A stretch of DNA of 38,439 bases, from assembly GCF_032062105.1 (NCBI RefSeq), contig NW_026929843.1:1-38439 (forward strand). The letters are read 5' to 3'. Position numbers and translations under genes: made by a program. Source of the DNA: Saccostrea cucullata (Eukaryota). The notes beneath the pieces are model-generated. The model was not told the origin of the DNA, did no database searches, and was given only the letters and a program-made list of their open reading frames with translations. Shown here piece after piece: positions 73-28,152 of this stretch (position 1 is its first letter; each line of letters begins with the position of its first letter).

Positions 73-244
73 GTGACTATATCAGAATACTGCCGGTCCT
101 GGTATTATGAAGGAGGGGGGAGAAAGATTCTGTATGTACCGTACAGTCCAGAGGAGATGTACGACCTCTTCATCAAACTACAGCTGGACATCATCACACA
201 CTGTACTGGTCGGACAGGAGGATTCGTGACAGGATCAGTAACTT
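73..244 (+). CDS. Candidate coding exon of unknown product; possible upstream exon of the ROCO gene or an exon of a neighbouring gene
   Basis: An open frame ...ISEYCRSWYYEGGGRKILYVPYSPEEMYDLFIKLQLDIITHCTGRTGGFVTGSVT ends at a consensus donor ACTT|GTGAGT at 245-250. Its 1-nt overhang is phase-compatible with the acceptor at 14499, but that happens one time in three by chance. I recognise no domain in the peptide. Confidence 0.2.
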
Positions 245-3200
245 GTGAGTATTTATAACTTTTAATAAAGTTTTCCCCCTAGAAACTAGTTTCAAAAATC
301 GCCATATAAATAACTTATTATTGATCATCAGAATTTTCAGGAATTTAAATACATAATTATTCAATATTTTTTGGTATTATTTCATTTGTATTACAGTAAC
401 TTATTTAGTATTGGATTTTTATGAAGAGACTTACTTTTAAATGACGGCTGACTTTTACATTTTAAAGGGGCCAACTCCAAACTAAAAAAAATATAGAATA
501 TGAATTTTCTTTATAAAACACATCCAAAATACAAGTATTTAATTAGTATTTCTGTTTTTTTTTGCTGGGATCTGTAAAGTTCTAAGGTAAATACTACAGT
601 ACTTAATATCAATTTTTGTAATTATCAAAATTTTGGGCCAGCAAAAAAACTTTTGATTTTTTTATAATAATTTTAAACAGCTATGTCATTAATTGTAAAA
701 TCTAAAGTGGGTTTATGAAATAGACCCTTGGTTGCCATAGAAACGGGGTGCAAAATTTCAATTTCGTTAATTTTAAAAACGTGTACTTATCAAGAAAAAC
801 TGTGTCCAGAAATGAAAAGGGATAACTTAATATGTTTTCATTATTTAAATTTAATCTAAAATTTAAAAGAAATATATCTGTATTTTTAATTTAATCTTCA
901 ATGGAAAATGGCCTTTTTAAATTTTTAACATATCAGATATGTGATTGGTTTAGTGGAGTTTTTGCAGGCTTAAAACAAAAAAGGACAAAAAATTTAGTAG
1001 TAATTAATTATGAAAGGCTGATATTTGATTATATCAAAATATGTAAAATATTGGTGGGAGACTCAAAGATGTAAAAGGAATTCAAAGGTAAAGATGACTT
1101 TTTTCTACATTTTGAAGCATTTTTTGCTTCCTAATTACTTCCCTTGAACTACTCTTAACGTTTGGAGGTACTATGTGTATAGTAAACAGCAATGAACATT
1201 TTCTGGCGAAAGATCTCATCAAATTTTACAGTCTGGAAGAAGAAAAGAAGGCTAGACATCCTAAACAATAAACAGAAGGTAAATTTATGTATATACTGAG
1301 CATTACAAAAATATCAAGATTAACAAATGCATATTTTCTTAATTTAATTTGCCTTAAAATACACAGTTGTTTTACCGGTAGTGGTCGGGTCCTTATCAAA
1401 TCAAGTGAACTATACCTTTTGACAGTTTGACTTTCTGAACAATGAATTAATTATTTTTAAATAAAAATAAATTTAAAAAGCATATAAACATCACAAGTTT
1501 GCTGATATAGCTGATCCCCCCCCCCCCCCGCGAAATATAAATGTCTATATAGCAGTGTATAGAGATTGTAGAATCTGTCCCATTCAGTAGGTTTACTTTT
1601 TATGATGTGCTGAAAGAGACTTTTAAGTGAACATTATTTATCTTTATAATAAAATTTACTTCTGTCAGTTTTCATTCATTGGTTATCCTATTATTTCAAT
1701 TCTTTATTGGCATTAGGCAATATTTTACAGAATTGTGTTGTTAAAATATTTAACTACTTTTGGTAGCTTTAAATACCTACGTAGCTATTAATACCTACGT
1801 AGGTAGAAATAGTCTTTGGACTGGACCTTTTAAAGACAATAAAGAAAAAGTAAGACCAGTAAACCAAAAAACCAAAAAGGTATGACTAATTTCAAGTGCA
1901 TTCTGCAAGAAAGTGGACAGCCTAGATTTTGTTCTTTTCAAAAACCCATTTTAAAAATGAAAGTAAATTTAGGCAGATGATACAAACAAAAAATGGATAC
2001 CGGATTGGTATATATTTTTTGGCATAATTTAATTGCAAATTAATGATGCTATTAATAAATTTCTAGAATATTAATAAATTGTAAACCTTCTGTGATGTTC
2101 AAAAGTCTGCCCTCTTGAAACTATCCTTATTAGTCTATACAACTATTTTTTACTTAAAATTCCTTTTTTATGCAAATATGATTTAAAAATAAAAAAGACT
2201 TGAAGATAATTTTTAATTTTACTGATTTAAACATGACCTCAGTTGTTATTTTCAAATTCTTTGACAAAAGTTTTTTTTGTCCCGTGGGTATCATCTGTCC
2301 TTAAATTGTTAAAAAATATTTTAGTTTTATATCTAAATTTAAATCTTGCTTTTTTTTTTTTTTTAAACAAAATTTAATACCTGTCCAGTAACAGAAGAAT
2401 TATGATACTAGAAAAAAGAAAACAATTTTTAAAGGATTACATACACATTTAATTAGCTTGAAATCAGTGTATATTGGAAAGTGCAGGAATTATTTACTAT
2501 TGCAGGTTGAGAAGGGATGCCATATTTTAGGTTTGAAACCAGGCAAGTAAAGCTGAATTCCAACCTACTACAACATACTTGTACCCACTGTCTTCAAGAT
2601 ATCAGTGTTTGAGATGTAAAAGTTCAAATATAATAGGAACATGTTTACATTATTATGTGAAGGCATTCAAATCTTATGCTGTTAACAATATGTTTTAGAA
2701 CTTATCATGCTTTATCCTGTACCCTTTCCAAAAAAAATCAACTCAGCATAATTCTCATTAACTAATTATCAGTGTTACTTGCGTATGTCAATGTAGGTCA
2801 TTACTTGTACATGCCTGTCCAACAAAAACTCTAAAATTGAAAAATCAGAGAAAATTTTCAGAGCAGCAGAAACGTGAAATTTTACATAAATATGATGATA
2901 TGTAAAATAGTTAAAAACATGTACTTAAATGTTGCATATATAAAAAATAAAAAAAACGAAAAATTCTCTTGTTTTCAGAATTTATATTTACACGTGAAAA
3001 AAAGAAAACGAGATTGAATAGTTCTGTGAGAGATGTTGGCAAACCTAGTAAAATGAAAGGAAGAACTTCCTTAAAATAACTTTGGGGGAGTGTTTATGGG
3101 GGGGGGGATTGTTTGTTAATTATATGCCAAACACTATGTTTAAAGTTTTCCATTGTTGGAATTTATGTTTAGATCCAAGATAACTTACCCAAGAGGATGT

Positions 3201-4951
3201 GATTTTTTTTATACCAATGAATTTTTCTAAGTTTAAAGCCGTGTTTCATAAGTTTTATAAAAAAAATAAGAAGGGGGGGGGGAAATTTTTGATTTCATTC
3301 AAAGTATCTGTGGTTTGCAGTTGCCAATGAATTTAATAAATAATTATATAAAGTAACAAGTTGAAATGAGTAAAATATTATGAATGTCCTGCTTGTTTTA
3401 GTTTCATTTAATAATTTTTCAAGATTGACCAAATCTTGGAAAAAGTAAAAGCCACAAGGTTTTGCAATTATTTGACATAGCATTACAAAATGCATTATAT
3501 TTTTGCAACATATAGAAAAGCAAAATTTTAAGTGAAAAAATTTAGTTCACATTTACATTTAACTCATTACACAGGTTTTATAAAAGAGTAAATAAGTCTA
3601 GTTTTGGGGAAAATTTTTACTTTAAACGCAGCCATTTTGGTTAAAAATGTGGTTTCCTGTCTCCATGGTAACAAATCTTGCATTCCTGTTTCCATAGTAA
3701 TAGAGAATGGATAGGGGAAAAATTTTTTTTCATATTAGTTTCAATCTAAGGGGGAAATTTCAGGAAACTTGAAACAATCCCTGGTTAGTCTACTGTGATG
3801 TACTTCAAAATTGTCAATTTTACGGAAGGGGGGGGGGGGGGGGGCATTTTGTGCAGGTGTTCACAGTTCTCCTATCTAAAACATAGGAAATGGGATGTGA
3901 ATATTTTTACATGACACTTCTCCTAGATATGGACTAATTTTTCTGTAAATGACATCAAAACAGGTAGAAAGGAAATTTCTTTTCTATATGAACTTAATGT
4001 AATGTGCATATGTTCCTTGAAATAAGGGAAATTTTGCAGATTTTGGTTAATTTTTCATATTTAGCTTTTTAAAAAAAATGTTTAGGTGTCCCATAAATAT
4101 TTTAATGTGTTAAAACTAACTTATGTACCATCTATACAATGCACTGTTTCAAAATCAGTGTGCAAAGTATTAAAAAATCGCTTTGAAAAGGGTCTAAAAT
4201 GGAAATTTTCTCAATTTGGCAAAATGCCAAATCCCCAAAGCTAAGCGTTGTTAAGCCATTATGTAGAATTACAGTTTTTAAAAAATTATGTTGTTATACT
4301 AAAGAGAAATAATGGTAGTTTTGAAACAAAAGTAGATTTTCCCATTCTCTTGTTTCTTTTAAGCTCATTTTTATTCAGTAAAACCTATAAAATCACGTTT
4401 TTTGGTCAAATTTTAGGAAGAATTTACAGGGGAAACAATGATTAGTACCATGGCAACGAGACATTTTTTGAAATAAAAAAATATAAAACCATTAATGATG
4501 TGACAATGTGAGTACACACAAAAAGTTTCATTAAAATTGAAAATGTAGCGTGGCCAAGCATTATTGATATTGTTTGATTATTACAGAATTGATATTAAAA
4601 CGCATACAAACATAAGGATAACTTTACATCGTAGATTTTAAATACGAGCTAGTTTGCTGAAATGCGCTTATGCGAGAATTTTCCAGGTCTAAGTTATTCG
4701 TGCATTTCTCAGCTTTACGTTCTCTTCATTTAACAAAATTACATAAAAAATTCATTTTCAATTATCAATAAATTCATTTGAATGAAAAATCAAAACTAGT
4801 GGTACATTGCATATTTCTTATTCTGAATCACTGACCCCGAGAGCTCTCAAGAGCTTCGGACCTTTTGATTATACGCCTCCTAGTTCGACCGAATTAGCTC
4901 CATAGTTGGTCTTTTTTTTCCTTTCCTCTCTGGTCTACATTCCTCAGATGA

Positions 4952-5179
4952 AGAGGTAAGGGTCATCTTAATGATGCTCAACAGTATTCCCGTCTTCCTG
5001 AAATAGGTGGACCAGAACTACCTTTTCTAGACGAGTGTATTTTACTTGGGGATAAAATATATCCTAACCATCACCCCGTTGTTACCGCATTGACAGAACA
5101 ACAAATAGATAGAAGGACCATTTTTGAAAGAAAAAGGTGTCGAAAAGTAAATCGAATCATTTCAACACATACACTTTAA
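4952..5179 (+). pseudogene. PIF/Harbinger DDE transposase C-terminal fragment (remnant)
   Basis: The frame reads GHLNDAQQYSRLPEIGGPELPFLDECILLGDKIYPNHHPVVTALTEQQIDRRTIFERKRCRKVNRII*. GhLnD...LLGDkiYP...pvvT matches the Harbinger/HARBI1 C-terminus (PGSLQDCAVLQQSSL...SWLLGDSSFFLRTWLMTPL). An in-frame TGA sits immediately upstream at 4949-51 and no N-terminal DDE portion is found, so this is a truncated relic. Confidence 0.45.
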
Positions 5180-5215
5180 AAAATGCGCTTAGAAAATAAA
5201 CACTTCCATTACGTG

Positions 5216-5400
5216 TTTTGACCTTAACATGTATAAGATTGTGTTAAACGGCTAAACACTTAGGTCTAAACGTGTGTTAGATTGTGTTTAACGGCTAAAC
5301 ACTTATGTCTAAACATGTGTTATATCTACATGATGTTAAGATTTCACACATGTTTAGATATAAGTGTTTAGAAATCCGAACACTTTTCTGTGAAGTGCAG
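5216..5400. repeat. Cluster of short direct and inverted repeats (gtctaaacaYgtgt family), including a 46-bp tandem duplication
   Basis: Two tandem 46-bp copies (gattgtgttaaacggctaaacacttaggtctaaacgtgtgtta and its near-duplicate), about 5238-5283 and 5284-5329. They are followed by the palindrome ctaaacatgtg...cacatgtttag. The cluster abuts the Harbinger remnant and may be its subterminal region. Confidence 0.5.
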
Positions 5401-6395
5401 AGTTATCTTCCCGGAAATGACGCATATATATTCGAATGATAAATAGAGCGGTTATCGAAACAAAGGAAATCCAAATATTAGCTAAAGAAGATGGATTAAA
5501 AGAAGTGAATGCTAATCAAAGTGATAACCATGAAGAGATTGTGAAATGCATTTAAACTGCAACATTACTGCGATAAAAGGTATGTTAACTATTATTTTTA
5601 TTTTACATAAATTGACCATGATGGGCAACGTAAACAGGCATGCGTTTGCACATGTAGCTGTAGATCAAGATTACCTTCGGTATATTTTGTATTCCTGAAA
5701 TCTAGAAAGGAGTACATTATATGGAATATCAATAAAATCTATAACAATATCAATACTAAAGAGTGGTTATATAGACGAGGTTCAATAAAAGTAGCACAAT
5801 AATAGCTATCAAACATGTAAAAAAAAAGTTCATACAAATCCAGCCATTGAAAAGCATATTTTGATAAAATTTGAATTTCTTTCTTGTAGGATATGGTCCA
5901 CATCGAACATGAAAGTAATATACACGTATCAGAGAAACTGTTGTCATCTCCAAGTCCACAATGACATGCCAATTATGCCATCGTTCTTACATTTTTCAAC
6001 ACTTCTTACTTTCTAGGGGAAACTGAGTTTTGTGAAGCCTGCTGTTCGTTATAGCTTTGAACAACCTAAAAAAATTCTCAAATGATGACAGTTGATTACT
6101 TACTGACGGTCACCGATGAAAACAAATTATGCGTGTGTTGCTCAGTGAAAAATTGCTGGAAGTTAAACTTGATACAGACATAAGAAATAACTGCTTGCTA
6201 ATCTGGTTAGAATTAAAACCAGCGTGTAAAATTTAATGTACATGTATATTTGATTTAAAATTCTTTATAAAAAATCCATGTTTGAATGTTCATTGAATAA
6301 AATTTAAAATGTAAACAATTGTTATTTTTTCAGTTTTCTTGCAGGAAGACAACGAAAACATCCAAGTGTTGAATTTGTAAACATGTATAACATAA

Positions 6396-6560
6396 CATTT
6401 TTTGTAAAGTGTTTAAAGTCTAAACATGTAAGTGTCTAGGGTCTAAACACTTTCCGTTACACGTAATGAAATAAAATGTGTTTAAAATTTCAACGCATCA
6501 AAAAAAGTGTGACAATAAAGTGCTTAGGAAAGTGTCTATCATCTAAACACATTTTTTTAA
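6396..6560. repeat. Second cluster of the gtctaaaca / tgtttag short-repeat family
   Basis: It contains aagtctaaacatgtaagtg, gggtctaaacactttcc, atcatctaaacacattt and the inverted copies gtgtttaaa. It shares the motif family with 5216-5400, about 1 kb away. Confidence 0.4.
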
Positions 6561-8099
6561 AGTGTAGGTCTATTGTTGAACGATCTATTTGTAGATTAAA
6601 GAGTTATAAAATATTGAGTAGTGTTTGGAGGCAAAAAAAGAAGACAACTTCGCCAAATTGTATTTATTGTTGCATGGTTGGCTACTATAAAAGAGAAATT
6701 TAACATTATTCTTTAATTATTGCCGTAATGTACAAAAGGCTGTATAAAAAACTAACTACCGGTTGGAATACACTTTTTATTTTGATAAGATATTGAGCAT
6801 TACGGGTTATCTAAAGGTTTTTGTAATACAATGTTTAAAACGATAACCCTAAAATGGTTAGTATTTATTGCACTAAATATACACCATACTTCAAATATGG
6901 TTTTTGTTCACTTGTTTGGATATATGCTATCCTGTGCAATTAAAGAATAAAACATTGAGATAAAGCAACAAAAAATAGTTCCTAAAGACAGAGGGTAATA
7001 ATCCATCTTTTGTTTTCTTTTCTGATTTACTTTATAAGTGTGTAGCTATAGTGTGTGTTGAGATTCAATTTAAGTGTTTGGAGTCGGTCCCTTTGAATTG
7101 TAAAAGTCAGTCGTTGATTGTAAAAGTAAGTCTCTTCATAAAACTCCATTACAAACAATTATATATATTTTCAAGTAAAACCCTCACAACTACTTTACCC
7201 TTTTATATCTACATCAATACCCTAAATTATTTGATTAATGTCAGTAATAACAGACCAAATAATTGAACTGGAAATCAATTTGACCGCTGTCGCATAATAT
7301 TTGGTCCGCATTGTTTAAAGCTCCGGCCGGACCTAATACGATAACATATTTGGTCCGCCTGGCTCTATAAGAAAAGGTCCGCCCTCGGCCTTTTAAACAA
7401 ATTGTATGCACGTGGTTCATTCGATATTAATTAAAAACTATTCTTTTAAAATGAATTAAGGATATATAGTCGTATTAATAGGTAGTGTTTCCTCCAAGAA
7501 AATGTAAGAAGCAAAAAGTAAGAAATCGAAATGAATACATTTACATAAATAAAGGAATGTATAGATTTATTGATCGGGTTTCCTGTCGGGATGATGGGAC
7601 ATGCTTCTTTTGTCGTTTAAATTAATAAACTAATGTCAACATTATCATAAAAAATATTAAGAATACAATTGAACATACATTTACCTTCACCTCCTTGTTT
7701 ACTGGCAGATTAATCAGTATTGAATGAACAGATAATGTTCTCAAGTCCAACACGAATCATTTAGTTACAGTTTCTTTCATATAAACATGATAAACATTTG
7801 ACTAATCCACTCACAAAAACTAAAGTTCACATCTTTCAAAATATATTTCTTTATAGTATTAAGAAAAGAAATCTATCATTCTTTACGTTTAATATTGTTG
7901 TAAATAACTGGAGGGTCACTAGCTGTGACAGGGGCTTATTTTACGGTGTACTTCCCTACACCCCTAATTGTAAAAACAACATGCCTACGGACTGGGCAGT
8001 TGATTGTTTCGTTTGAGAAAACCTAAAGTACCATGTTTCTTACCTATTCAAAGGCTAAATTTTTATATCTACTAGATCTCTGCATTTCATTTTCTGAAT

Positions 8100-8250
8100 T
8101 TAACATTGCATTTTCCGACAATTTTTGTAATTTTTTCGGAATCCGACAATTGTTTTTTTCATTTCCGACATTATCTACTAGTATTTCTTTTTCTTTTTTC
8201 ACACTTTCGGATTTTTTAGGATACCTTTCCGGCAATTTAAGTTTAACATA
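8100..8250 (+). repeat. Copy A of a 'ttccgacaat ... ttcgga-tttttt-ag-tacct-tccggcaat' repeat family
   Basis: Direct similarity to 10975-11075. Both carry repeated tccgacaat motifs and end in ttcggattttttaggatacctttccggcaatttaagtttaac, compared with ttccggaattttttataggtacctctccggcaatgtaatgtttacc. Confidence 0.5.
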
Positions 8251-8599
8251 TATATATAAAAAAGATGGAAATTGAATTTTAACAGGGTATTGTATATATG
8301 CATTGTATAATATTATTTATTTCAAATCACGTTTTTTCTAATCATTACATACACTCTGTAATCAATATTAAGACGGGTTAATAAGTATGGAAACAGTGAA
8401 GTGAAACTTCACATTCACAATTCATGTACCTTTATCTGTTCCAGTGCAAAATCAAGTACGTTTCTTTGACAGCTAAGAGCAAAGCCTTTTATTTGAATAA
8501 ATTATCTAAAATATTTTACCTTAATTAAGGATTTTTATAACGGATGTATGACTTCTTTTTTCATTGACGAAAAAAGTACTGAAATGAATTTGACAAATG

Positions 8600-8700
8600 T
8601 GAAAACTTTTAAAATGTAAAAACTTAAAAATGTCGGAAATGAAAAGGACAGAAAATTCCGGAAATGAAATACTACTACTAAATATTACTTCGGGACAAGG
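8600..8700 (-). repeat. Inverted partial copy of the same repeat family
   Basis: tgtcggaaatgaaaa and aattccggaaatgaaat are reverse complements of ttttcatttccgaca and of the tccggaat motif at 8150-8200. Confidence 0.4.
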
Positions 8701-9204
8701 TAAATGTGCATTAATTGGCGAAATCAAACCAAATTAAGTCGATTAATTGCTGGATTTATAAATGCCTTTATTTTTTCATAATTAATATACATGTGGCTCA
8801 TATAAAATCTCTGTGCACTACATTTATGATATATTATATATACTAATGTCTCTCAGTTTCAATGAAAATCCGAACATTTTATACCCCCTCCTTTTTTTTA
8901 ATTATTACATGTGTATTTTTTTCAACTGTAAAAAAAGTTTAAAGTTTTAAAGTATACCGATATTGTACATATAAAGAGCTTGAGTTTAAAGACACAATTT
9001 CAGAAAATAATGAATGCACTTATGGGCCCTGGTAAAATGTGAAAAAATAAGCAAAGTTAGCAAAATTTTCATCTCAAATCATTAATTCATATCCAAACCA
9101 ACGATTCAACAATTTTTTACCATGGAATTCACAAAAAATAAAGAACAAAACCATACAATGTGGTAGGGTCAGCCGACTTTTGTGATTTTCTATTAAATTA
9201 CTAA

Positions 9205-10345
9205 ATCGAGATGCAGTACAGAGGGCGGACCTTTTCTGATAACTGCGTTTTAAGGTCCGCCCTGTCTATTTTTCTAGTTTTCAACCTCCGAAAATAAACC
9301 CTGTCCAAAACTTCTCTTTATGACATGAATATATATGAAATACAAAGGGCGGACCTTTTCTGATAACTGTGTTTTAAGGTCCGCCCTGTCTCTTTCTCTA
9401 GTTTCTAAGCTATACGTAAATAAACCCTGTCCAGAAATTACCCTATAAAAATGAAGAATCTGAAATACAAAGGGCGGACCTTTTCTGATAACTGCGTTTT
9501 AAGGTCCGCCCTGTCTCTTTCTCTAGTTTTTAAGCTATACGAAAATAATCCCTGTCCAGAAATTACCCTATAAAACATGAAGGTATCTGAAATACAGAGG
9601 GCGGACCTTTTCTGATAACTGCGTTTTAAGGTCCGCCCTGTCCCTTTCTCTAAATTTTAAGCTACGAAAATAAACCATCTCCAAAAATTATTATTTTTTT
9701 GATAACATGAGGATATCTGAAATACAAAGGGCGGACCTTTTCTGATAACTGCGTTTTAAGGTCCACCCTGTCTCTTTCTTTAATTTCTAAGCTATACGAA
9801 GATAAATCCTGTCCAAAAATTTCCCTATAAAAAATGAAGATATCAGAAATACAAAGGGCGGACCTTTTCTGATAACTGCGTTTTAAGGTCCGCCTTGTCT
9901 CTTTCTCTAGTTTCTAAGCCATACGAAAATAAACTCTGTCCAGAAATCACCCTATAAAAAAATGAAGATATCTGAAATACGAAGGGAGGACCTTTTCTGA
10001 TAACTGCGTTTTAAGGTCCGCCCTGTCTCCTTCTCTAGTTTTTAAGCTATACGAAAATAAACCCTGTCCAGAAATGTCCCTATAAAACATGAAGGTATCT
10101 GAAATACAAAGGTCGGGCCTTTTCTGATAACTGCGTTTTAAGGTCCGCCCTGTCTATTTTTCTAGTTTTCAACCTCCGAAAATAAACCCTGTCCAAAACT
10201 TCTCTTTATGACATGAATATATCTGAAATACAGAGGGCGGACCTTTTCTGATAACTGCGTTTTAAGGTCCGCCGCCTTGTCTCTTTCTCTAGTTTATAAG
10301 CTACGAAAATAAACCCTGTCCAGAAATTACCCTATAAAACAGGCG
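9205..10345. repeat. Tandem satellite, about 123-bp unit x about 9, each unit with an internal 10-bp inverted repeat
   Basis: Unit ...acaaagggcggaccttttctgataactgcgttttaaggtccgccctgtctctttctctagttt.taagctatacgaaaataaaccctgtccagaaattaccctataaaa.atgaag.tatctgaaat. The unit phase starts about 9219 and is periodic at about 9343, 9466, 9590, 9716, 9843, 9968, 10093 and 10218. gggcggacc...ggtccgccc can form a stem with a 20-nt loop in every unit. Units 1 and 8 share a distinct variant (ttttctagttttcaacctccg...cttctctttatgacatgaatat), hinting at a 7-unit higher-order period. Confidence 0.9.
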
Positions 10346-10974
10346 TGAGATAAATAATTATAAACAACTTTTCGCAGAAACCTTCAAGTCGGTTATAATA
10401 TAACATAATTTTCGGTTATACTAGTAATAGAAAATAATTCATAGTTACTAACACTTAACAGTTCTTGACAAAGGACCAAGCTTCTTCACCAATCGTGGCT
10501 TCTTAACATCTTCACATTCGGAACTCTCTGGATTTCTTTATATAATATGCTGCATTGCCACGAAATTCTATTCTAAACCAGCTCATACAATGCGTCAATC
10601 TGCATCTTTGCCATATTATATAGAGTCTCCCCCCTCTGATGTTTCGGAGGTCCGTGTTTGCTCTGCTCTTATTTTGTATATTTGTTTAATGGACGTTGAG
10701 ATTGAATACTGTTTTTTATTTCCATATCCTTCCTCTCCAGTAAAGGTCATTAATGTTCCGTTGCGCCAAAGCTCCAATAGGTCCACCCCCCCCCCCTCGT
10801 TTATTTACCTATATGTCTATAAAACTCACTTCACAAAACAATTATAACTTGATCACACTCCAGTCTCGGAAAAATTAAATATTCAGCAAAATAAATCAGT
10901 TGAACACGGACTTTCCTTTCTGTGTTTAAAAATTGCTACGGCGCTAGCTCACTTATCTTTTTTATAAGATAAAC

Positions 10975-11075
10975 TTGTTTTATTTCCGACAATTACTCTT
11001 TTTTCCCGACATTTGATTTATCTTTTTTTATTTCCGGAATTTTTTATAGGTACCTCTCCGGCAATGTAATGTTTA
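10975..11075 (+). repeat. Copy B of the tccgacaat/tccggcaat repeat family, flanking the 123-bp satellite on its right
   Basis: See 8100-8250. Together with the inverted copy at 8600-8700 it brackets the tandem array at 9205-10345. Confidence 0.5.
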
Positions 11076-11877
11076 CCGGGTACATGGACGTAGAAAAGGA
11101 ATTTTGAAAAAAAAATTATTAAACACCACAGTTTTAATATAAAAATCTGTATAATACATCTGTACATGAAGCACCAAGTCTATTTAACAGACTACAAATA
11201 ATGAGCATGCAATTTTTTCCTCACATTTAATGTTCGATAAATCAAATGCCAAATACTGCCTTGAACTTATGTCTATAATTTTATTCTTTAAAATTTTCAA
11301 TTACCGAAATTTAAATCAAAATTTGCGTTTTATATATAGATATCAGAGATTTAAAACAATGACCGATTCTTATCGATTCGGAATTTAAATATCAGACACA
11401 GTTTTAATTCAATTAGCTTGAATTTAACTAATAGGGGATATTTAAGTTCAATATCGGTGAAAATTTTAATTTAAATATAAATATCAACTCTCATGTAAAT
11501 ATACGCTTAATCTAGTATTTATAATTTTTAACTCAGATACGCCATATTTAGCTTTAAATTTTCAAATAAAGACTATATGATTATAATTAATATAAATGTC
11601 GCAGTTTTGAAGTGTACGCATGGATATTTTGTTCCTTAGCATGATTTATTAATTCAAGAAATTTAAATCTATTGATATGTAAAGCTAACACATGACCATA
11701 AGGTTCACCGACCATTCAATGACAGCGCCATCTGCCGCGGGCTCTACCTGTGGGTACCTGTCAGGTAAACAAATACGTCACACCCCCATTGTTTTATTAG
11801 CTATACACACCGACAGATTTCACACCTTTAATCGTATTCTAATTCACACAAAGCTAATTCTAGGGAAAACAAACACT

Positions 11878-12446
11878 TATTTATTTCAATAGTGGTCACT
11901 ATTTATGTTTGTTATTGAAATGCACTTTCAACCACTATTGATTATTTCAATAGTGGTCGTATTTCAATAGTGGTTATTACCTATGTTTGAGTAGTGCCCG
12001 TATTTCAATTGTGTTTGAAACCTATGGTTACCATATTGTAATGCACTCTCACCCACTATTGAAATAATTATTTCAATAGTGGTCGTATTTCAATAGTGGT
12101 CACTATTTATGGTTGTTATTGAAATGCACTCTCAACCACTATTGATATCATTATTTCAATAGTGGTCGTATTACGATTAATATTGGTTATTACCTATGTT
12201 TGTTATTGAAATGCACTCTCAACCACTATTGATATAATTATTTCAATAGTGGTCGTATTTCAATAGTGGTAACTAACTATGTTTGCTATTGAAATGCACT
12301 CTCAACCACTATTGACATAATTATTTCAATCGTGGTCGTATTTCAATAGTGGTTACTAACGATGTTTCTTATTGAAATGCACTCCTAACCACTATTTATA
12401 TAATTGTTTCAATAGTGGTCGTCATTTCAATAGTGGTTGCAACATT
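11878..12446. repeat. Tandem satellite, about 88-bp unit x about 6.5
   Basis: Unit is about atttcaatagtggtcgt atttcaatagtggttactaac tatgtttg.tattgaaatgcactctcaaccactattga.ataatt. Each unit holds two direct atttcaatagtggt copies and one inverted accactattgaaat. Confidence 0.85.
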
Positions 12447-12899
12447 GCAATCTTGTTGTGTATTAATGAGAAATATTAAAACTTTTATCCAGAAAAATAA
12501 TTTTATTCAGAATAGAAAAGTTAGAAACAAACTCCTTCTGGATTTTCTGGATTATAGTATTCAATGACATATTTTTCATTTTTACACAATGAAATTGCTA
12601 CTTTTCCAAAGGATTAAGAATAGAATTCATTTGTGAAAGAGCAAGGATGTGTTTATCAAACCCGCCAAAAAATTTGAAATTTTAATATCTTTTATATGAA
12701 ATAAGATTTTTAATTAATGTTTGTGTGAAATGCTATTAAAATATATAAGTCGTCATATTATAGAGAAAACAATAACTTCAAATCTGTGTCAATTACCTTT
12801 AAAATATGTACAAAATAATAAAATGCAAATTACTTTTTAATGAATATTCACAAACATTTTCATTTATTATAATAATTTAGTATTATTACATTAAACCCA

Positions 12900-13230
12900 T
12901 GAATACATCTTAAATATTAACGAGATCTTCTATGACTTCGAAATACACATTTATAATACCTGTCAACTTATCAACAATACATTAACAAATATACTTTTAT
13001 GACTTCGAACTTTGCAATAATAATAATGTCCAATAATAATAATGTCAACGTGTCGACCTGTCAGCCAGATATAAAACAAATATATTTATCAACAAATGCA
13101 CTTCAATGACTTCGAACTTCACAGTAATATTGATGTCAACAGTTCTACTTGTCAACCTGTCAACCAAACAGACATTGTAGCATGTTTTTGAACAAATGTT
13201 CTTCTATGACTTCAAAATACACATTCATAT
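12900..13230. repeat. Degenerate tandem repeat (about 80-100-bp units) with core cttctatgacttcgaa.t.cac
   Basis: The core recurs four times, at about 12928, 12995, 13098 and 13198, with diverged spacers. Confidence 0.4.
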
Positions 13231-13339
13231 AATAAGGTCAGATTTGTAGTATTCAAATACGATAATATAAAACAAGAACGTAGACAGTGCATGTATATAA
13301 TGCACAAATATTTAAAATTCCAAAGAATCTGGGGGATTA

Positions 13340-14354
13340 GGCGAGTCATATGCCCACAAGGATTTTCTCGCTTTGTAAGCATATCGAACATTTCATAGTC
13401 GTACGATTAACCTTAACATTTAAACTTTGTACAGCAATGTCCAAATGACAATATCTATATTTCTTTAAATCTTGAGGTTATCGTGACATTATTTTAACAT
13501 ATGTGATCTTTTCATACTGCGTGTTAATTGTTATATCAAATATGTTTTCAGGCGTTAGGAGATGATTATACATTTCTTGTTAACTGTTTTTGTATACAGT
13601 ACAGTCATATCGTTCCGGTATACCAATGGTTGTTTTCATTTCAATTGTGTAATACCGGTGTAGTCTTGAACTAAATGCATTCAAATTGTTATATACATGT
13701 ATCTCGAAAACTTGTTTATTATGGGAAATATATTAATGGACTATATATAAATTCATTATCTTATTTATTCATTTTGTTTTATTGAAAAAAATATATGTAT
13801 CTATAAATTTCAACCTAAACTTAAAAAAGCTGTGGTCCGAATACTCGCGACAAGTGATGCGTGCTTCAGCACCGCCGCTATGACCAGTGAGCTACGAAGT
13901 CTCAGATACGTTGCTCTTTAAATTACAAACAGTTCTATATGTATAGCAACCCCCTAATTATACTTGGAGTTTTTGAGAATATGTTCCGAAATTTAAATAG
14001 GTAAACTAACTTTTTCATATAGAGTGGGTCTTCTTACCTTTTTTTTTAAATGAAGAGAGATACATCCTCCCATACCCTTTCAATATTTGTATACAAAAAT
14101 TGGTACAAAGACCCACTCTATATGAAAATACAAATTTAACATTCAATTTCTAATATTTTTACGGTTACTAAAGCGTGTTACCATTTTGGTGGGTTAATTA
14201 AAATCAATTTCTAAGTCATTTGATTCAGGTTTTATCATAACTGTATATACAGTCGAATATGGTTATAAATAAATCCCAAATTTAACAAAAGCGAAATTTA
14301 TCAGAATTTCTAAATTAATATTTTTTCTGCCCTTGCCTAGGCATATGACTCGCC
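13340..14354. mobile_element. Non-autonomous PIF/Harbinger-type (Tourist-like) element with about 24-bp TIRs and a TTA target-site duplication
   Basis: Left end gggggaTTA|ggcgagtcatatgcccacaagg. Right end ccttgcctaggcatatgactcgcc|TTAaaccc. The TIR is GGCGAGTCATATGCC.A..AAGG with 2 mismatches, flanked by TTA at 13337-39 and 14355-57. No ORF lies inside. It contains a nested 21-bp perfect hairpin. It ends 145 bp upstream of the Roc exon. Confidence 0.5.
14014..14129. repeat. Perfect 21-bp inverted repeat (ttttcatatagagtgggtctt / aagacccactctatatgaaaa) with about 75-nt spacer
   Basis: An exact reverse-complement pair read directly from the sequence. It lies inside the Harbinger-type element. 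Confidence 0.6.
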
Positions 14355-14499
14355 TTAAACCCAAAATTCATTTGAAACGTTATAAATTAAAGTTGAATAT
14401 TTGAAGTTTTATTAAGATAGTACTTTATATTTCGTTAATAAGAGTTATTTTTCATCATTGATGAGTAAATTAATTGTGTTCATTATTTGCATCATTTAG

Positions 14500-14751
14500 T
14501 AAATATACCCAAAGAAGTATTAAGTTGGGATATCCATGCTAGAGAAAGGTTTGTGAAGAACTCCAAGCTAGGAAGCGTACAAATGTTTCGCGCCAGAGGC
14601 ATGATAGTTGGATGTGCAGGTGCCGGAAAAACAACTCTTTTACGAAAACTTCACGGAAGAGGTATAACAGATGAAGATGAACCAACTGAGACAACTATCG
14701 GCCTTGAGGTTCATGAAGATTTGTTTGCTATTAAGGAAAACAAGTTAACAG
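14500..14751 (+). CDS. ROCO-family Roc GTPase, coding exon with P-loop (G1) and G2 Thr
   Basis: The ORF-track frame translates to ...FRARGMIVGCAGAGKTTLLRKLHGRGITDEDEPTETTIGLEVHEDLFAIKENKLT. GxxxxGKTTLL followed by T-I/V-G is the Roc/Ras G1-G2 pattern, as in LRRK2 MIVGNTGSGKTTLL...TVGIDV. The acceptor is tttgcatcatttag|TA at 14498-99; an alternative AG lies at 14513-14. An in-frame ATG at 14583 (MFRARGMIVG...) is a plausible translation start. The donor is AACAG|GTGATA at 14752, leaving a 1-nt overhang. Confidence 0.6.
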
Positions 14752-15102
14752 GTGATATTTTCCTTTATCATATACTTAGTGATAAATACACCAATTCTGC
14801 ACGGTGTGATATGGGTGACGTCACAATACCCCATATCACGGACCGGTCCGAAAATCCATATCACGTATCAGACCGGCGGGCCGAAAATCATTATTAAACC
14901 GAAAGTCACGTTTGTATCAATTTTAAAAGTTAATTTACTTGATTTTATTTAAATATTCATATAAAATAATTCTTCAATGACTTTTGTAGTCTTAATTTTT
15001 TTGTCATTTACCTAAAATTGGTTCTATTACATTTTAAATAAAAATGCCATAAACAAGCATGAAACCTCGCATATTAAGTATTTTAAATGTATGATAAATA
15101 GA

Positions 15103-15246
15103 ATACTACATACTAAAATCCATATCATATGTCACATCAGCCCTCGGGCCCCTTATCAACCCTCTGGCCTTCGGCCCTCGGGCTGATATGGTGCCACTCG
15201 GGCTGATATGACATATGATATGGATTTAAGTATGTAATATTCTCTA
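15103..15246. repeat. Hairpin/MITE-like inverted repeat (about 36-bp arms, GC-rich loop) in ROCO intron 1
   Basis: The arms are tacatact.aaatccatatcatatgtca.atcagcc and its reverse complement. They flank ctcgggccccttatcaaccctctggccttcggccctcgggctgatatggtgccactcgggctgatatg. Confidence 0.5.
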
Positions 15247-16771
15247 TTTTTCAAACAGTGTATATGCTATGTTTTAGAGTATATACTTATTTAATCAAAC
15301 TGAAGTTCGAGTTTCTAATCCTTTTGATTAATTCCGCTTATGTTTCTCATTTGTTGAAAAGTTCCAATATCAGGATAGGTATGGTGAATTTCTTAGAAAA
15401 TTGTTCAGCATGTTTAAAACTAATGTATACACAGTAAAAAGATGACTACATTAAATATAGCAAAAGCATTGCATTTAAACACCATGAAGGTTATCAAGGT
15501 ATTGGATTGCTAATGTACATGTAATTATAATGTTAAAGATATATATGCCGTATTAGTGTTTTATTGCTAAAGAAATAAATATATGTGGTGTCTCATCAAG
15601 TTACATAAGTTATGTAATTTCTGCAATTAAGACAATTCCACTCCATCACTTTTAAAAGTTATGAAATATTATTTTGTAAAAATTATTTTCTCTCCGAATC
15701 GGATATTAAACCGCCTCTTATTGAAATATTCATGAACACGTGGTCTCGCATGCTCACAGCAAACAATGGTCCAATCTCGTGAATGAGCCGAAAAGCATGA
15801 TGGTCTACTACGTTTTTACTACAAACACGTGGGTTAGGGAATTGTACGATGCGATTTAAAATGACGGCTGGAAAGCCAATTTACATTTTTTTAAAAACCT
15901 GTTTTAGAAAAAAAGGAAGAATAGTTACTAATTGAGAATTCCCATGCTCACATTAACAAACAAATGCAGTTTTTCTTGTTAGCATACTGTATGTTTCGAG
16001 GTTGTACACATTGTAAACATTGTCAATACGTGAACACACCTCAGAGTTAGTAGCTTTTTGTACCGAGGAATATATAGTTACGTGCAATTGTCTTTTCATT
16101 GTCAGTAGAGCACGGGGAAATTGTAAACAAACGGACCTGTACAATAGAGTGGGGAAACTCTTATTTTTATCATTGTTCATTTGTATGCAAATGTTAGGAT
16201 GGGATTTGTAGATGATAATGTACATAATGCATTAAGCGTGTAAATACTTGGGAAATGCTCCACGTCTTTCTGAGAGCGATTTAAAAAACTAGCCTGTTCG
16301 AAAAACACATGTAGTATTTATGTACCGAGTAGTAACCCATAAATGCATTAAATACAACTCATTGAGCTGATTGGTCGATTTATCAGTCTTGTTGGTTCCT
16401 CGCTGAACAGACGTCACAAAAAATAGTCTCCTCGACCTGATGATTCTCGTGATACTTTTCCCGCGCACATGCGCAGATCCAACATAAACGTCAGGCCTTT
16501 ATAAATATGTATGAGAATATCGTGTTCTTTTCCCAACCAGTACTTTGTTAATAACGAATAATATTTCGTCGAATTTGCGAGAATGCTTCATTTTTGATAG
16601 CTTATCATACTTCAGAAATTTCTGTTTGGTTTCAGCTGTGCAAAAATACTGTTTAACACGGCATACATATCTTTAAGTTTTATGAAATATTTAGCAAAGA
16701 TTTTTGTCAGGAATTCTCTTTTAGTTTTATATTACCCGGTAATTAATAAGTTTATCTTCGTACTCGAACAG

Positions 16772-17005
16772 ATTTTGCGAATGCTGACAACAGTAGAAAT
16801 CCATACCTTGACAACAACGTAATAAGCATGACAGACTTTGCAGGACAAGTGGCGTACTACGCATGTCACCAGGTTTACCTGTCAAGAAGAGCATTTTATA
16901 TCGTAGTTATTGACATGTCCAAAAAGCTTGATGAAGAATGTCGATTGTATGACACAGATCGTCATGATCCAACAGGATCCTTATTTCATTCATGGACTTA
17001 CGGAG
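16772..17005 (+). CDS. ROCO Roc GTPase exon with switch II / G3 (DFAGQ)
   Basis: Translation ...MTDFAGQVAYYACHQVYLSRRAFYIVVIDMSKKLDEECRLYDTDRHDPTGSLFHSWTYG matches the Roc G3 region (LRRK2 [31 protein letters not shown]). The phase suits a 1-nt overhang from exon 1. The acceptor cgtactcgaacag|AT at 16770-71 has the better pyrimidine tract. The alternative in-frame acceptor catgacag|AC at 16833-34 (exon start 16835) removes 21 aa. The donor GGAG|GTGAAT is at 17006. Confidence 0.5.
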
Positions 17006-17427
17006 GTGAATAACATATTGATGCTAAAATTATCTGCCCCCAGTCTGAGTAAGATCAATTATGAATTTTATTAAATTTAATCAGATTTTCTAAGACAACT
17101 TTTCTTTAAATTTGTGAAATCATGAGTTTCTTCTCCTAAGTAATCTGTTTTATGTGTCTGTATTTTGTATTTATGATATATTAAGTATTTTGCAGAGGGA
17201 CTATGAAAAAGCTTTGCTAATGAGGTTTGTTTTAAATATTGAGAAAAAACAAACATCCACACACTCCCAAGCAATGCCAATGAATAATGGGGCATGAACC
17301 AATAACATTGTAAATGACATACAACATGTATATTTTACCTATACATGTATATACATAGCAGTAATTTAATGTAAAGGGTGATGAATTTACCAACCAAAGT
17401 TAAACACCGAAGTAAAAATATAAACAA

Positions 17428-20400
17428 TGTACACAGGAAAAATGTATACATGTGTTGAATATATGTTAAACATGTGTTTATCATATATTTTTTACACATG
17501 TAAAACACATAAAAGGAGCACATATGTATAGGGTGTTTATTTTTACACATGTTAAACATATGTTTCACATGTGTTTAACATGTGTAAAAATAAACAAATT
17601 ATATATTTATACATATGAATCATGTGTTAAACATGTGTTTTATATATGTTATACTTTATATGTGAATTATACGTGTATAATATTACTGTTGTACTTATTA
17701 TCATTTTTATACTTTTTTCATGTCTGTCCACATATGTGAATCACATGAAAAGGGCAGCATATGTAAATCATATGAAATAGTTACATGTGTTCTCTTTCAA
17801 TATTTATCAGAAGGAAAAACACATTCTTGTACACATTTAAAAATCAGATATTTCTGCTTTAGATGAAAATCCATTACATTCCAATGATCTATCTTCATGG
17901 GTTAAATATTTGAAAATTAATATCTTAAAATGCTTACACAACTTTTTTAACATAATTAGTCCATGTCCTTTTTTATAATTTATATGATTTGACATGAAAC
18001 TGTCCAAAGCAAAATTAAAATATCACATATAACATTTGTCATGTATTCTCTATTGTAAATTTATGAAAAATCAAGTTATTTGATATTACAGCATACAAAT
18101 AAGAATGGGAATTAAATCTTTACAGGTCAAATGCAGACAAGATTCTGTACATCCTCCCAATTTCATAATTATTTCATATATTTTCTTGTTCTTTTTCCTT
18201 CTGTATCTTTCAGTTTTCTTCAGTTGTCCTCCCTCTGATCTTCCATGAGCTTGACCATTTTGAACTCTCTTTGAACTGTACCCAAAATGCAAATCCACCA
18301 TTTCTCCCTTTCCTAAGCAATTTCTTTGTGGCACAGAATGGTCTCTACAAAAATTTCAAAAGTAAAAATAAAACAATTCTTAAATTACAAAATCAATTCT
18401 ACAAGTAATATTAAAGTTCAGCAAACAAATGTATGACCAGTTCACCAACAGAGATATGATAAGAGATAAAACTAATGTTATATATGCTATGCTAGGTGTT
18501 TTGTGGAATCCTATGATGTAATTAGCAAGACAATTACACTGTTGGAAGATATGCTTCATAATAAAGTCATAAAAAGCATTTTTTTTTATTTTTACAATTA
18601 AATTTGGAATGTACAAACAGTATTACTAATTCATATTGCAAAAAAGTAATAAGATTCTGACACAAATATTTTATTTTTGGACAAAAAATACTACAGAGAA
18701 GTAGACAGGCAGAAAAACAGACAGTATGATTCCAGGATATCCCAAATGTTGTTGGGAAGAATATAACAAAGTTTATCTAACAGTGTGTAGTTACCTTAAT
18801 TAAGCTTTTAAGCAAGTCTTGGATCTTGGGATTTATTCTTATGAGACGCTGACTGTATATTGAACCTGTAAAACAAATATTCACGCAGTAGATATCTTCT
18901 AAGCATAACTAAAACTTAATTAAACTACAACTACAAAAAAGAGAGAGTACTTGTTTGTAGGTTCTTAATAGTCTTAATTAATATCTTACATCTTACCAGA
19001 AACTATGTTCTCTAGTGTTGGAAAAAAATAATAAATGTCAGGTAATGAATACCGGTACATAATAGTTGTAAATATCCAATGGATTAGCTAGCTGATGTAC
19101 TTTCAACAATCAACACATATGCACATGTACTTGTACCTTGTACCTTGAAAGTTGGATGTCTTTCTTCTTTCTTTATTATCACTTTAAGCCTTACAGCTTA
19201 TCAGTATATTTACAAAATAATCAGTTTCATTACAGTACAGAAGCGGATATTTTACTGTTATTATTAATTTTTAACTGAAATTAAAAAATTCAATAACCCC
19301 CCCCCCCTGAAGTCATTTACAGTACATGTACCAATTTCATAGCTTTTAAAGCCAGCAAATTCTATTCATACTTTCCATATTTTAAAAGTGCACTGGATTA
19401 AAACTGTTTTATAATACAGAATAAAATTATTGTAGTATTGAGTTGAATTCATTCAGAAACAAATTTATCCAAAATTACTTACCTGTATACAAATTATAAA
19501 AAATAGTCATGCCTTTAGCATGTTTAGCCTAACATGTAACCGCTTACATTCACGGGCACTGGAAGTTAATATATCATGTATAGATCTATAGTTAGATAGA
19601 ATGTTCTATCGTTAAAATGATATTGTCCTACGGACCCGGTTTAACGTGAGGGCCTGTACCGAGACACAGTTAGATTATTCTAACTAATCTATAGTATGTG
19701 TATGTATAAAAAAGAAGGGTCTTTTTTAAACATACACATACTATATGTTTACATTAACTTCCAGTGCCCATGCTTACATTCAGTCAGAAACATTTTTCAC
19801 CAAAATTACTTACAGATCACTATCGTTAGGTTTACGAAATGCATGACAAGTCACAATGATAATTAAGAGTATTACAGAAAGTTCATACGCACCTGTAACT
19901 ATATGAAATGATATTTAAACAATATGAATTAAAAGTCTTTTAAAAATTGTTTGGAGATCACTTACCTTTCCAATACACCCAGCACGTCTGTTGCAGCAGT
20001 GACGTCAAAAATGACGTACATTTTCATCCGATAAAAGACAAAACCGGCCCTGAGACAAATACGGAATTAATAGAATTTTACTCAAGAAGTAAGCCAAGCC
20101 CAAAAGATTTAAAATGAAAAGAAAATGAATTCATTCCTTATCAATTTTGTCTGATAAATGCATTATTAGAGAAAAAAAATGTGAAAGTTTTTTTTAGAAG
20201 GGAAAGGGGGGGGGGGGTAAACAAAGTTAAACTTTACATGAGTAAAATTTTACTAACATTTACAAATTCTTTTGAATTAATGTACACACACATATGAGAT
20301 AAAGCTTATCATGTGTATAACATGTGTATATGAATACACATATATTTTATTTAAATTAAACATGTATAATTCATCTGTATTTTCGCACACATATATTACA

Positions 20401-20625
20401 TATATATAATACGTGTTTTACATGTGTGGTGAAAAACATATGTTTAACATATATATTATCTTACAGGTGTATAACATGTGTATATTATATGTGTTTTACA
20501 TATAAATGAAACACATATTTTACATGTGTTTATTTACACACATGTATTACATGTATAAAACATGTGTTGAACACATGTGAAACCAAACATATGTTTAACA
20601 CATGTGGACATTTTTCCTGTGTACA
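17428..20625. mobile_element. About 3.2-kb element bounded by long degenerate inverted repeats (ACATGTGT-rich arms), in ROCO intron 2
   Basis: The left arm opens tgtacacaggaaaaatgtatacatgtgttgaatatatgttaaacatgtgtttatc at 17428. The reverse complement of 20560-20625 is tgtacacaggaaaaatgtccacatgtgttaaacatatgtttggtttcacatgtgttcaacacatg. The arms extend about 330 bp, to about 17760 and from about 20280. The interior has no convincing ORF and contains a 35-bp-arm foldback at 19541-19790. Confidence 0.45.
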
Positions 20626-20806
20626 TAGTAATCTATAAAAAGAAACATCAAAATATCTTGATAAGTACAGAAAAGAAAATATTTAATATATTGCAAAATA
20701 TCTATACCTTTTTCCCAACTGACCACATTTTTGGATTGGGCATCAAGTCAAAAGGATAAAGAAGGATGATTATATTCAAACGAGAATTTTTTCAGTAATG
20801 TAGTAT

Positions 20807-20968
20807 AGGAATCACTGTCTAGTTAGTATAGTATGCCAGGGCATCAGCAATAGTGAGAAACATGGGATAATTTGCATAACCTGCGAAGCCCGTTTTACAT
20901 AAATTATCTAATGTTTCCCATTATCGTTGATGTCCCTGGCATACTTTACTAACTAGACAGTGATTCCT
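20807..20968. mobile_element. 162-bp MITE-like hairpin element with TA(T) flanks
   Basis: aggaatcactgtctagttagtatagtatgccagggcatcagcaatagtgagaaacatgggataa ... ttatctaatgtttcccattatcgttgatgtccctggcatactttactaactagacagtgattcct. These about 65-bp imperfect inverted arms are flanked by tat on both sides, at 20804-06 and 20969-71. Confidence 0.55.
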
Positions 20969-21570
20969 TATATTTCCATTTCATTGTAAAATAAAATTGT
21001 AGATTTAGATTTTAAAAATGTAGACATATATATTTAAATTACACAAGAACTCCCATGCCAATTTTAACAGTCCTCGACAACTGACGTCAAAAACAAAGGC
21101 AGCCGTACGAGATTCACATGCATATCAGGCCTCCTTAGCGTTGAACACAGATGCGCACAAAATTTGAATGCATATCAGGCCTCTTTAGCTCCTGACCTAT
21201 CGACCTGCCTAATTTACATCCCGGTAGAATTATCAAGATATCAACTCCGCTAACTTTCAAAGAGTTATCACAGAGAATAAAATTAAAATGGAAATATATT
21301 ATTATCACTGTATGATTTATTTCTAACATTAAATTTTATTCTTGTCCATTACAAAATAACATATTCTTGTGATTATGCTGTATTTGTGTTCAAGTAAATG
21401 GTAACAAGCAAATTATTATTATTATTATGATTAATCACAGTCCCTGGTGATTTTTTCATATCAACCTACTAAGGGAAAATAACTTTATAAATATTTTTTT
21501 AAAAAATAAAAATATTCATATTAAATTCATTTCGAGTTGATATAAATATTGCCATGTATATTATCTGTAG

Positions 21571-21722
21571 AATACTTCCATTTTTGGCTGCAAACTGTAA
21601 ATACATATTGCAATGATGGAACAACACAGGAGAATCCTAAAGACACAACAGCAATCAAAAACTCCACGACGAATTTCAATATTCCCCCGATAATTCTTAT
21701 TGCCTCCCATAAAGATCAGATG
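21571..21722 (+). CDS. ROCO Roc GTPase exon with G4 motif (HKDQ)
   Basis: The acceptor ttatctgtag|AA at 21569-70 completes the split codon as G+AA = E. Translation EYFHFWLQTVNTYCNDGTTQENPKDTTAIKNSTTNFNIPPIILIASHKDQM aligns with LRRK2 PWLFNIKARASSSPVILVGTHLD. The donor ATG|GTAAGA at 21723 is consensus and phase 0. Confidence 0.6.
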
Positions 21723-21883
21723 GTAAGAACAAATTCCACCCTGTGTTCGTTTTCAAACTGTTCAAGTATGCAGATTTATTTGCTTTGAACCAACTTGATG
21801 TTGGAAACCTCATTTGCAGCTGATAAATGTATATTACAACAAAAATAAGAAATTCAAACCTGATGATAGAAAGTTTGTTACCT

Positions 21884-26626: not shown

Positions 26627-28152
26627 AGGCCCGTGGGCCTCTTGTTTTATAAAGGATTGTTTTAGGTTACCATTTCCGTCTTTTTACTGTACTAGTTACA
26701 TGTCTAAAAAATAAAAATAAAATAAAAACTCTAAAGTATATGTTAACATTTATACCAATTTCGCTAGCTTATATTAAGTCGACGTACATGTATGAACGGA
26801 AGTTTCTATAATTGTCAATTGATAGTACTACGATACACCTAAATATCGAGTTGAAGACCACACCTATCTGAATTTACATACAGGTTGCTTAATTTTAAAC
26901 CACTTATTTTCTAAAAAATAGAATGGAAACACATATAAAATACCAATATTGAAACTTTTTTGTCATTCCGACCCGAAAGTAGCTATTTTTATGATTTATT
27001 GACCCTTTAACCCCTAGCTTTTCATGGTATATACGCATTTCTACGCATCTGACGTGAAAAATGGGTATAGTGTGAAAAAAACATTCATAACTTCTTGAAT
27101 ACTGCAAATATCAGAATACTTTTTGCACTGCTGGAAAGAGAATACAATAACAATAGAAAGTTTCTTGCTAGCTTGAGTTAAACTTTGCCGCGCACTATTT
27201 GAGCAATTCTGCCATAGTCAATGCGGTGGTAAAACGTTATATGTAAAAAAAAACTTAACTTAGGTGATCTCCTTCCAACCCCAACCCGTCCTGCCAAAAT
27301 ATTAAAAAAATTTTTTTGTTTTTTTTAAATGTACGACATGCGCATAATTTACAACAGAACAATAAAATGATCAAATATTTTAAAAATATTTTTAACTTAA
27401 AATGAAAAAAACTAAAATGGCACTCATTCTTCAATAAATGAAATTCCAGCAGGATGATGGCGTATTTCGTTGCTATGGTAACTACATTGATATTTTATAA
27501 TCATTTTCAGACACTACACCATGCCTGCTTTCAGAATATATATGTATACATTGGTATACACAAAAAATTAAAGAAATACTCGAAAAAATGCTTTGAAATT
27601 TGAATACAATTTGTTTAGAAATACTTAAAATCTTTGCCAATTGGAAGGGATTAAGTGTATCTGGCACTTGCTATTAAAGTACTCTATGCAAATGATTCAT
27701 TTGCTGTGTTTCCTTATGAAGAAGGATATGGAGATAACGAACAGTTATACAAATACAGCATGCAGACATTTCTTCATCGTCTCTTTAATCTTTTGCTGCT
27801 GTATTCATAAATGAATCAAATCATATACTGATTTTAATTGTCTTTGTAAGCCTTAATAAAACTTCAACTTGTTTTCACTCAATCATTTGATGAGTATTAC
27901 TACTGTCAAGAGTATAATTTGTTATTACTTGTACAGAGTGTATTCCCGGCGATAGAGTGTCATAATAGGTGATCAACGTTTAAAAATGAACAAAGGGAAA
28001 TAATAGGGAAAACTAATTTTTAATATCCGATAATTATAGAAGCTACGTAATTCATGTTTAATTATATTAAAATATAATCTCGAAAGTTAACATTATTAAA
28101 TTACCTTCGTTGGTTTTTTAATACATTTATTAATTTCCTTATTATTAAGCAG

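Follow-up and report, generated by a model that had tools for sequence, protein, structure and literature searches.

DNA transposons of the PIF/Harbinger superfamily carry terminal inverted repeats (TIRs) of 14-25 bp that, in published elements, start with GGG or GGC, and they are flanked by a 3-bp target-site duplication of TTA or TAA (PMC2213677). MITEs usually measure 100-500 bp (PMC2836001). Both PIF-Harbinger elements and MITEs are common in the genomes of bivalves, for which 58 autonomous PIF-Harbinger consensus sequences have been curated (PMC10294476).

Here, we analysed a stretch of 38,439 nt from the oyster Saccostrea cucullata (contig NW_026929843.1, positions 1 to 38,439; referred to as the window in the following) and characterised a segment of 1,015 bp with 30.6% GC (13340-14354) that is bounded by a pair of TIRs and by TTA on either side. 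We read this segment as a DNA transposon of the cut-and-paste type that is non-autonomous, has PIF/Harbinger-type ends and resides in an intron of a Roc-COR gene, and we put the probability of this reading at about 0.7. The features on which the argument draws are the following (window coordinates):

157-244, plus strand: predicted upstream coding exon of the Roc-COR gene (tblastn of paralogs P0010, P0039, P0040, P0045 and others; alignment to S. echinata locus L002)
245-14499, plus strand: predicted intron of 14,255 nt containing the element (donor and acceptor phases match)
13318-13336, no strand: left flank, imperfect inverted copy of 14358-14376 (13/19 positions)
13337-13339, no strand: putative target-site duplication, left copy, TTA (read from the sequence)
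13340-13354, plus strand: 5' TIR, GGCGAGTCATATGCC (exact match)
13340-14354, no strand: whole non-autonomous element, 1,015 bp (bounded by TIRs and TTA)
13825-13905, minus strand: GC-rich tRNA-like piece, A-box-like TAGCTCACTGG and TTCGGACC, then T6 (a weak resemblance, read from the sequence)
14012-14128, no strand: internal hairpin, 37-nt arms at 86% (14012-14048 / 14092-14128)
14340-14354, minus strand: 3' TIR, exact reverse complement of the 5' TIR
14355-14357, no strand: putative target-site duplication, right copy, TTA (read from the sequence)
14358-14376, no strand: right flank, imperfect inverted copy of 13318-13336 (13/19 positions)
14500-14753, plus strand: Roc (P-loop) exon, first in-frame ATG at 14583

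Ends, content and class of the element

The sequence GGCGAGTCATATGCC is present in the window in two exact copies that are inverted with respect to each other (13340-13354 on the plus strand and 14340-14354 on the minus strand), and no third match exists in the 38,439 bases even when 3 mismatches are tolerated. Immediately outside both copies, the sequence reads TTA (13337-13339 and 14355-14357). These TIRs and the TTA at both flanks had been proposed in the original prediction and were confirmed by direct reading as an exact 15-bp inverted pair, with G or C at 9 of the 15 positions of each arm. Inside the element, the longest stop-free stretch amounts to 56 codons, and none of the six reading frames yielded a Pfam match at E values of up to 1. 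The segment thus lacks coding capacity, as MITEs do, yet at 1,015 bp it falls outside their size range. Because this length exceeds the usual 100-500 bp and no second copy was seen in about 200 kb of Saccostrea DNA, the label “MITE”, which implies a short element with many near-identical copies, is a loose one, and “non-autonomous Harbinger-like element” is the safer and more accurate name. From the initial designation as a Harbinger-type MITE, we therefore retain the Harbinger-type ends (TIR and TTA) and the non-coding nature, but not the size class.

As to the superfamily, the exact 15-bp TIR lies within the length range of about 14-25 bp described for PIF/Harbinger, the single insertion is flanked by TTA, one of the two characteristic triplets, and the TIR begins with GGC, as published plant PIF/Harbinger TIRs do. 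Since a 15-bp TIR beginning with GGC and a TTA duplication match the published definition, an assignment to PIF/Harbinger is plausible, judging from the structure of the ends. Compared with the mPing/Ping TIR, GGCCAGTCACAATGG, the oyster TIR agrees at 8 of the first 9 bases and at 9 of 15 overall, a short match that is suggestive at most, and the motif G(N)5GTT of plant TIRs (PMC2213677) is absent from it. Alternatively, the segment could be a genuine DNA transposon of another superfamily that creates 3-bp duplications (Zator, Academ or CMC/EnSpm), in which case TTA would be just any triplet in AT-rich DNA. Zator and Academ elements have been reported in bivalves (PMC10294476), TTA and TAA are frequent triplets (2,612 such sites in the window) and, with a single copy, TTA is indistinguishable from any other 3-bp duplication. 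On the other hand, the length of the TIR, its GGC start and its agreement with mPing/Ping over the first 9 bases fit PIF/Harbinger. TIRs of the CMC group start with CACTA or CACTG, and the TIR of the oyster element does not. Altogether, we consider membership in one of these other superfamilies unlikely.

Within the element lies a hairpin (14012-14128) whose core is formed by perfect 21-bp arms (14012-14032 / 14108-14128). Folded as DNA, it reaches -23.7 kcal/mol (z = -7.1 relative to shuffled sequences), and searches in Rfam returned generic sub-threshold matches to miRNA hairpins and nothing else. A nested perfect 21-bp hairpin had previously been placed at 14014-14129; the structure is real, but these coordinates are 1-2 nt off. 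We considered the hairpin as a nested MITE and rejected this interpretation: it has no flanking duplication and its arm has no further occurrence across the window and 163 kb of S. echinata sequence. Besides, a GC-rich piece inside the element (13825-13905) is reminiscent of a degenerate tRNA or a SINE head. It was recognised neither by ARAGORN at default settings nor by Rfam, and ARAGORN with relaxed thresholds produced poor models only.

Position within a Roc-COR gene

Downstream of the element, the P-loop of a Roc GTPase is encoded in the exon at 14500-14753 and a COR-A domain in a large ORF at 28192-29466, and tblastn located exons at about 14500-14753, 16768-17004, 21570-21752 and 28147-29481. 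At the protein level, the Roc exon is most similar to Saccostrea sequences designated “pats1-like” or uncharacterised: those of S. cucullata match it at up to 85% across its full length (98% in the case of a partial model), those of S. echinata at 74%. The Roc-COR family is greatly expanded in Saccostrea rock oysters. Far upstream, positions 3-219 of the window were matched in tblastn by the N-terminal segment of ten paralogous proteins, one of which stems from Ostrea edulis. The exon found there ends in a phase 1 donor between 244 and 245 (T followed by GTGAGTATTTA, that is, T then GTGAGT), with the same exon end in S. echinata L002, and frame 1 from the ATG at 157, the start used in the annotated proteins P0039, P0045 and P0034, remains open across the junction and on into the Roc exon.

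When donor and acceptor are joined, the T of the donor and the TA that follows the AG at 14499 form TTA (Leu), which restores the conserved junction of P0010, P0039 and P0040 (L followed by NIPEE or NIPKE). S. echinata paralogs are annotated with this junction too, across introns of 3.45 kb (L002), 5.4 kb (L029) and 26.4 kb (L028), and the L028 match is identical to P0040, its residues 84 and 85 coming together at the junction. The 14,255-nt intron of the window falls within the range of these paralogs (3.4-26 kb). Because the upstream exon donor at 244 joins the acceptor at 14499/14500 in phase, as it does in the paralogs, the element is most probably intronic and situated 145 nt upstream of the 3' splice site. 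The original prediction had given distances of 145 bp to the exon acceptor and 228 bp to the ATG at 14583, and both are correct: the element ends at 14354 and the acceptor AG at 14499, which gives 145 nt, and 228 nt lie between the element and the ATG (14583-14585). It had also offered two placements, promoter or intron. The intronic one gained support from the exon at 157-244, its phase-matched donor and the junctions of the paralogs, whereas no supporting evidence emerged for the promoter.

The upstream exon itself poses a complication. Relative to S. echinata L002, window positions 1-244 contain indels of -3, -2, -3, -3, -1 and -2, three of which shift the frame, and the indels break the reading frame in the first part of the exon. 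This Roc-COR copy may be partly decayed, or it may have a shortened N-terminus as in P0039, P0045 and P0034; that the upstream exon is used in this gene copy is what we infer from the sequence. The indels bear on the possibility that the element, or the 145 nt 3' of it, acts as a proximal promoter, from which a transcript would start at the Roc exon and be translated from the ATG at 14583. Such a role would be compatible with the transposon identity of the element. The annotated paralogs P0004, P0012 and P0059 begin at the equivalent methionine and, because the upstream exon differs from that of S. echinata by frameshifting indels of -2, -1 and -2, initiation at the internal ATG would still yield a Roc-COR protein, albeit a truncated one. 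However, the Roc exon starts at a conserved AG acceptor, an open and conserved frame (NIPKEVLSWD...) precedes the ATG at 14583 for 27 codons, and the upstream donor is intact and phase-matched, with frame 1 from the ATG at 157 reading through the junction. In addition, S. echinata P0013 has its coding start beside the Roc exon, yet its gene start is 3.9 kb upstream. A promoter at this site hence appears quite unlikely to us.

With the element placed in the intron, the Roc exon would have to be annotated as an internal rather than a first exon, and the exon at 157-244 should be added to the gene model, followed by a repeat-filled intron of 14.3 kb. In S. echinata, the P0013 Roc-COR gene (L001, 1-38148) lies wholly inside the span of a larger gene on the same strand, the 2,503-residue product of which has a CEP209_CC5 match.

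Relatives, flanking sequence and neighbouring repeats

Relatives of the element were sought in the window and in a sample of four S. echinata loci (163 kb), together about 200 kb of Saccostrea DNA. The window holds no second copy, as judged both from TIR matches with at most 3 mismatches and from BLAST of the whole element, and the TIR, with up to 2 mismatches tolerated, is absent from the four S. echinata loci, as are the element body, the subterminal sequence, the hairpin arm and the tRNA-like piece. Inspection by eye of the stop-free stretches that reach 130 codons or more, both in the window and in the 163 kb of S. echinata sequence, revealed none resembling a transposase. The closest S. 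echinata locus (L002) aligns with the window intron over no more than the last 36 nt before the Roc exon. An uninterrupted site at the TIR-bounded ends would read ...GGGGGATTAAACCC..., and an empty site with a single TTA would read ...TCTGGGGGATTAAACCCAAAA...; the reconstructed empty site had no paralogous match. A scan of viral contigs for the element returned 20 single matches, consistent with chance, and a metagenome scan returned 5 matches, attributable to chance, all flanked by unrelated sequence and on contigs with a bacterial type of GC content (40-54%). The Logan, JGI and ENA contigs contained no relative of the Roc-exon ORF above 58% identity and, because a near-identical relative is lacking, these collections appear to be missing Saccostrea genomic DNA. 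A full-text search of the literature for the TIR sequence retrieved no paper.

The sequence outside the element is partly symmetric. The 19 nt beyond the left TTA agree with the inverted 19 nt beyond the right one at 13 positions (binomial p = 3.6e-4), a match reached by 0.09% of window sites, and an inverted-repeat search extends the arms to 37 nt at 81% (13318-13354 / 14340-14376). With this inverted similarity past the TTA, the ends of the element are less clean than they seem. It might be argued that the true repeat is this 37-nt imperfect inverted repeat, belonging to an older, larger element or foldback within which the TTA would be internal and coincidental, and both the extension of the arms to 37 nt and the rarity of the outer 19-nt match favour such a view. 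Against it, the inner 15 nt are perfect and the outer 22 nt match at 68%, the opposite of how a single TIR decays. We also rejected outer element ends at 13318/14376 for want of a credible flanking duplication, as just chance AT-rich 2-3-mers occur there, and in gapped local alignments of the wider flanks 30% of random TTA/TAA sites reach the observed score. Moreover, PIF/Harbinger elements have an extended target preference of 9-15 bp (PMC2836001), which could explain part of the symmetry. Taken together, a larger element ending at 13318/14376 is very unlikely, and the symmetry of the flanks most likely reflects either a target that was itself symmetric or a small foldback that predates the element and received it at its centre. 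The extended target preference of PIF/Harbinger has been described as palindromic.

Chance was assessed by means of 600 first-order Markov simulations of the window, which were screened for exact inverted pairs no shorter than 15 bp and no more than 3 kb apart. Simulated windows contained 0.67 such repeats each, nearly all of them AT-rich; pairs whose arms had at least 50% GC did not occur in any of the 600 windows, and pairs with TTA or TAA on both sides occurred at 0.008 per window. The 15-mer TIR is expected 0.21 times per window with 3 mismatches allowed. The combination of TIR and TTA is not a chance product. Although a single copy of the element is known and repeats and inverted repeats abound across the window, these figures (no pair with at least 50% GC, 0.008 TTA/TAA-flanked pairs and 0.21 expected 15-mers per window even at 3 mismatches) make it highly improbable that we are dealing not with a mobile element but with inverted 15-mers and TTA flanks brought about by coincidence or local rearrangement.

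As for the surroundings, the intron at 245-14499 is packed with tandem arrays and other repeats. One array (9212-10328) has a period of about 127 nt and the motif AGAAAAGGTCCGCCCTC, which is also found inverted at 7370; another (11882-12438) comprises 4.8 copies with a period of 83 nt and 88% matches; and a third (12926-13230), made of degenerate units of ~100 nt, adjoins the element and recurs with a single additional unit in the next intron (14950-14983). Several further TIR-bounded elements are present in the window. A 2.2-kb element at 30390-32621, apparently flanked by TA, has 37-nt TIRs at 97% (TACGAGGGGCATTTCAAAAGTCC...) and an inner inverted repeat at 31312-32586, and looks like a mariner-type non-autonomous element with a second inverted-repeat structure inside. 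Near the exon at 21570, we observed a compact, MITE-like insertion of 162 bp (20807-20968) with 35-nt inverted ends at 97% and TAT on both sides. The intron just after the Roc exon contains a 144-bp foldback (15100-15243) with 44-nt arms at 93%; the motif CCATATCAC recurs near this foldback, and related short repeats are found at 14831-14894. Finally, long inverted-repeat pairs (35-67 nt, 88-91%) bound the segments 17424-20629, 32896-35526 and 405-7155 (2.6-6.8 kb), which are probably larger DNA transposons or composite insertions.

Possible behaviour of the element and comparison with known systems

If the non-autonomous Harbinger-like reading holds, the 15-bp TIRs would have been recognised by a transposase and a Myb-like partner, both encoded by an autonomous relative at another genomic location, and we infer that the element was mobilised in trans in this manner. 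It would have inserted at a TTA, with repair of the staggered cut duplicating this triplet on both sides, and it would have landed in a Saccostrea Roc-COR “pats1-like” gene, within the 14.3-kb intron that separates the N-terminal exon, whose last base is 244, from the Roc exon, whose first is 14500. Because the TIRs are perfect and the two TTAs identical, the sequence suggests that the insertion is not very old, with the 36 unmutated bases constraining its age only loosely. The element is most likely a neutral passenger that would leave the gene unaffected, and it shows no sign of a function. An effect on splicing is not expected, because branch point and polypyrimidine tract usually lie downstream of where the element ends. 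At its right end, the element resembles a 3' splice site (ttttttctgcccttgcctag followed by G at 14320-14340, with the pyrimidine tract ttttttctgcccttgcc and then tag followed by G); this acceptor-like site, between 14339 and 14340, precedes the real acceptor by 160 nt and could serve as a cryptic one.

The finding is thus an ordinary one, namely a further non-autonomous DNA transposon in a transposon-rich oyster genome. It would come as a considerable surprise if the insertion, or the 145 nt 3' of it, had become an alternative promoter after decay of the N-terminal exon (yielding a truncated Roc-COR protein from the ATG at 14583), or if the 117-nt hairpin gave rise to a small RNA acting on the Roc-COR family. 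Should transcripts start at the element, this would represent a small case of transposon-driven rewiring in the expanded oyster Roc-COR family, and should the element be polymorphic between haplotypes, it might be of use as a marker.

Among described systems, mPing/Ping/Pong of rice, a Tourist-like MITE with its autonomous partners in the PIF/Harbinger superfamily, share with the oyster element a 15-bp TIR and a TTA/TAA duplication. The mPing/Ping TIR (PMC2836001) has the start GGC-AGTCA in common with ours (8 of the first 9 bases), whereas bases 10-15 differ. Both mPing and the oyster element are non-coding, and movement in trans by two proteins, a feature of mPing, is proposed here for the oyster element. 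In contrast, mPing is a plant element, while the present one is from an animal, is 1,015 bp long and is known from a single copy, with no partner element identified. The length of mPing is 430 bp.

Zator and Academ are likewise TIR-bounded cut-and-paste elements, with duplications of 3 bp or 3-4 bp, and have been reported in bivalves (PMC10294476). The 3-bp length of the duplication is the sole pointer from the oyster element towards them. To our knowledge, neither has a preference for TTA/TAA.

The likeness of the oyster element to the curated PIF-Harbinger elements of bivalves is one of structure, not of compared sequence. Together with non-autonomous Harbinger elements of animals such as Harbinger3N_DR of zebrafish, the bivalve PIF-Harbinger families resemble it in residing in animal genomes and in having a 3-bp TWA duplication. 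In vertebrates, Harbinger elements show an extended target preference of 15 bp (PMC2836001), and the extended preference of animal Harbinger elements may be related to the symmetric flanks of the element described here.
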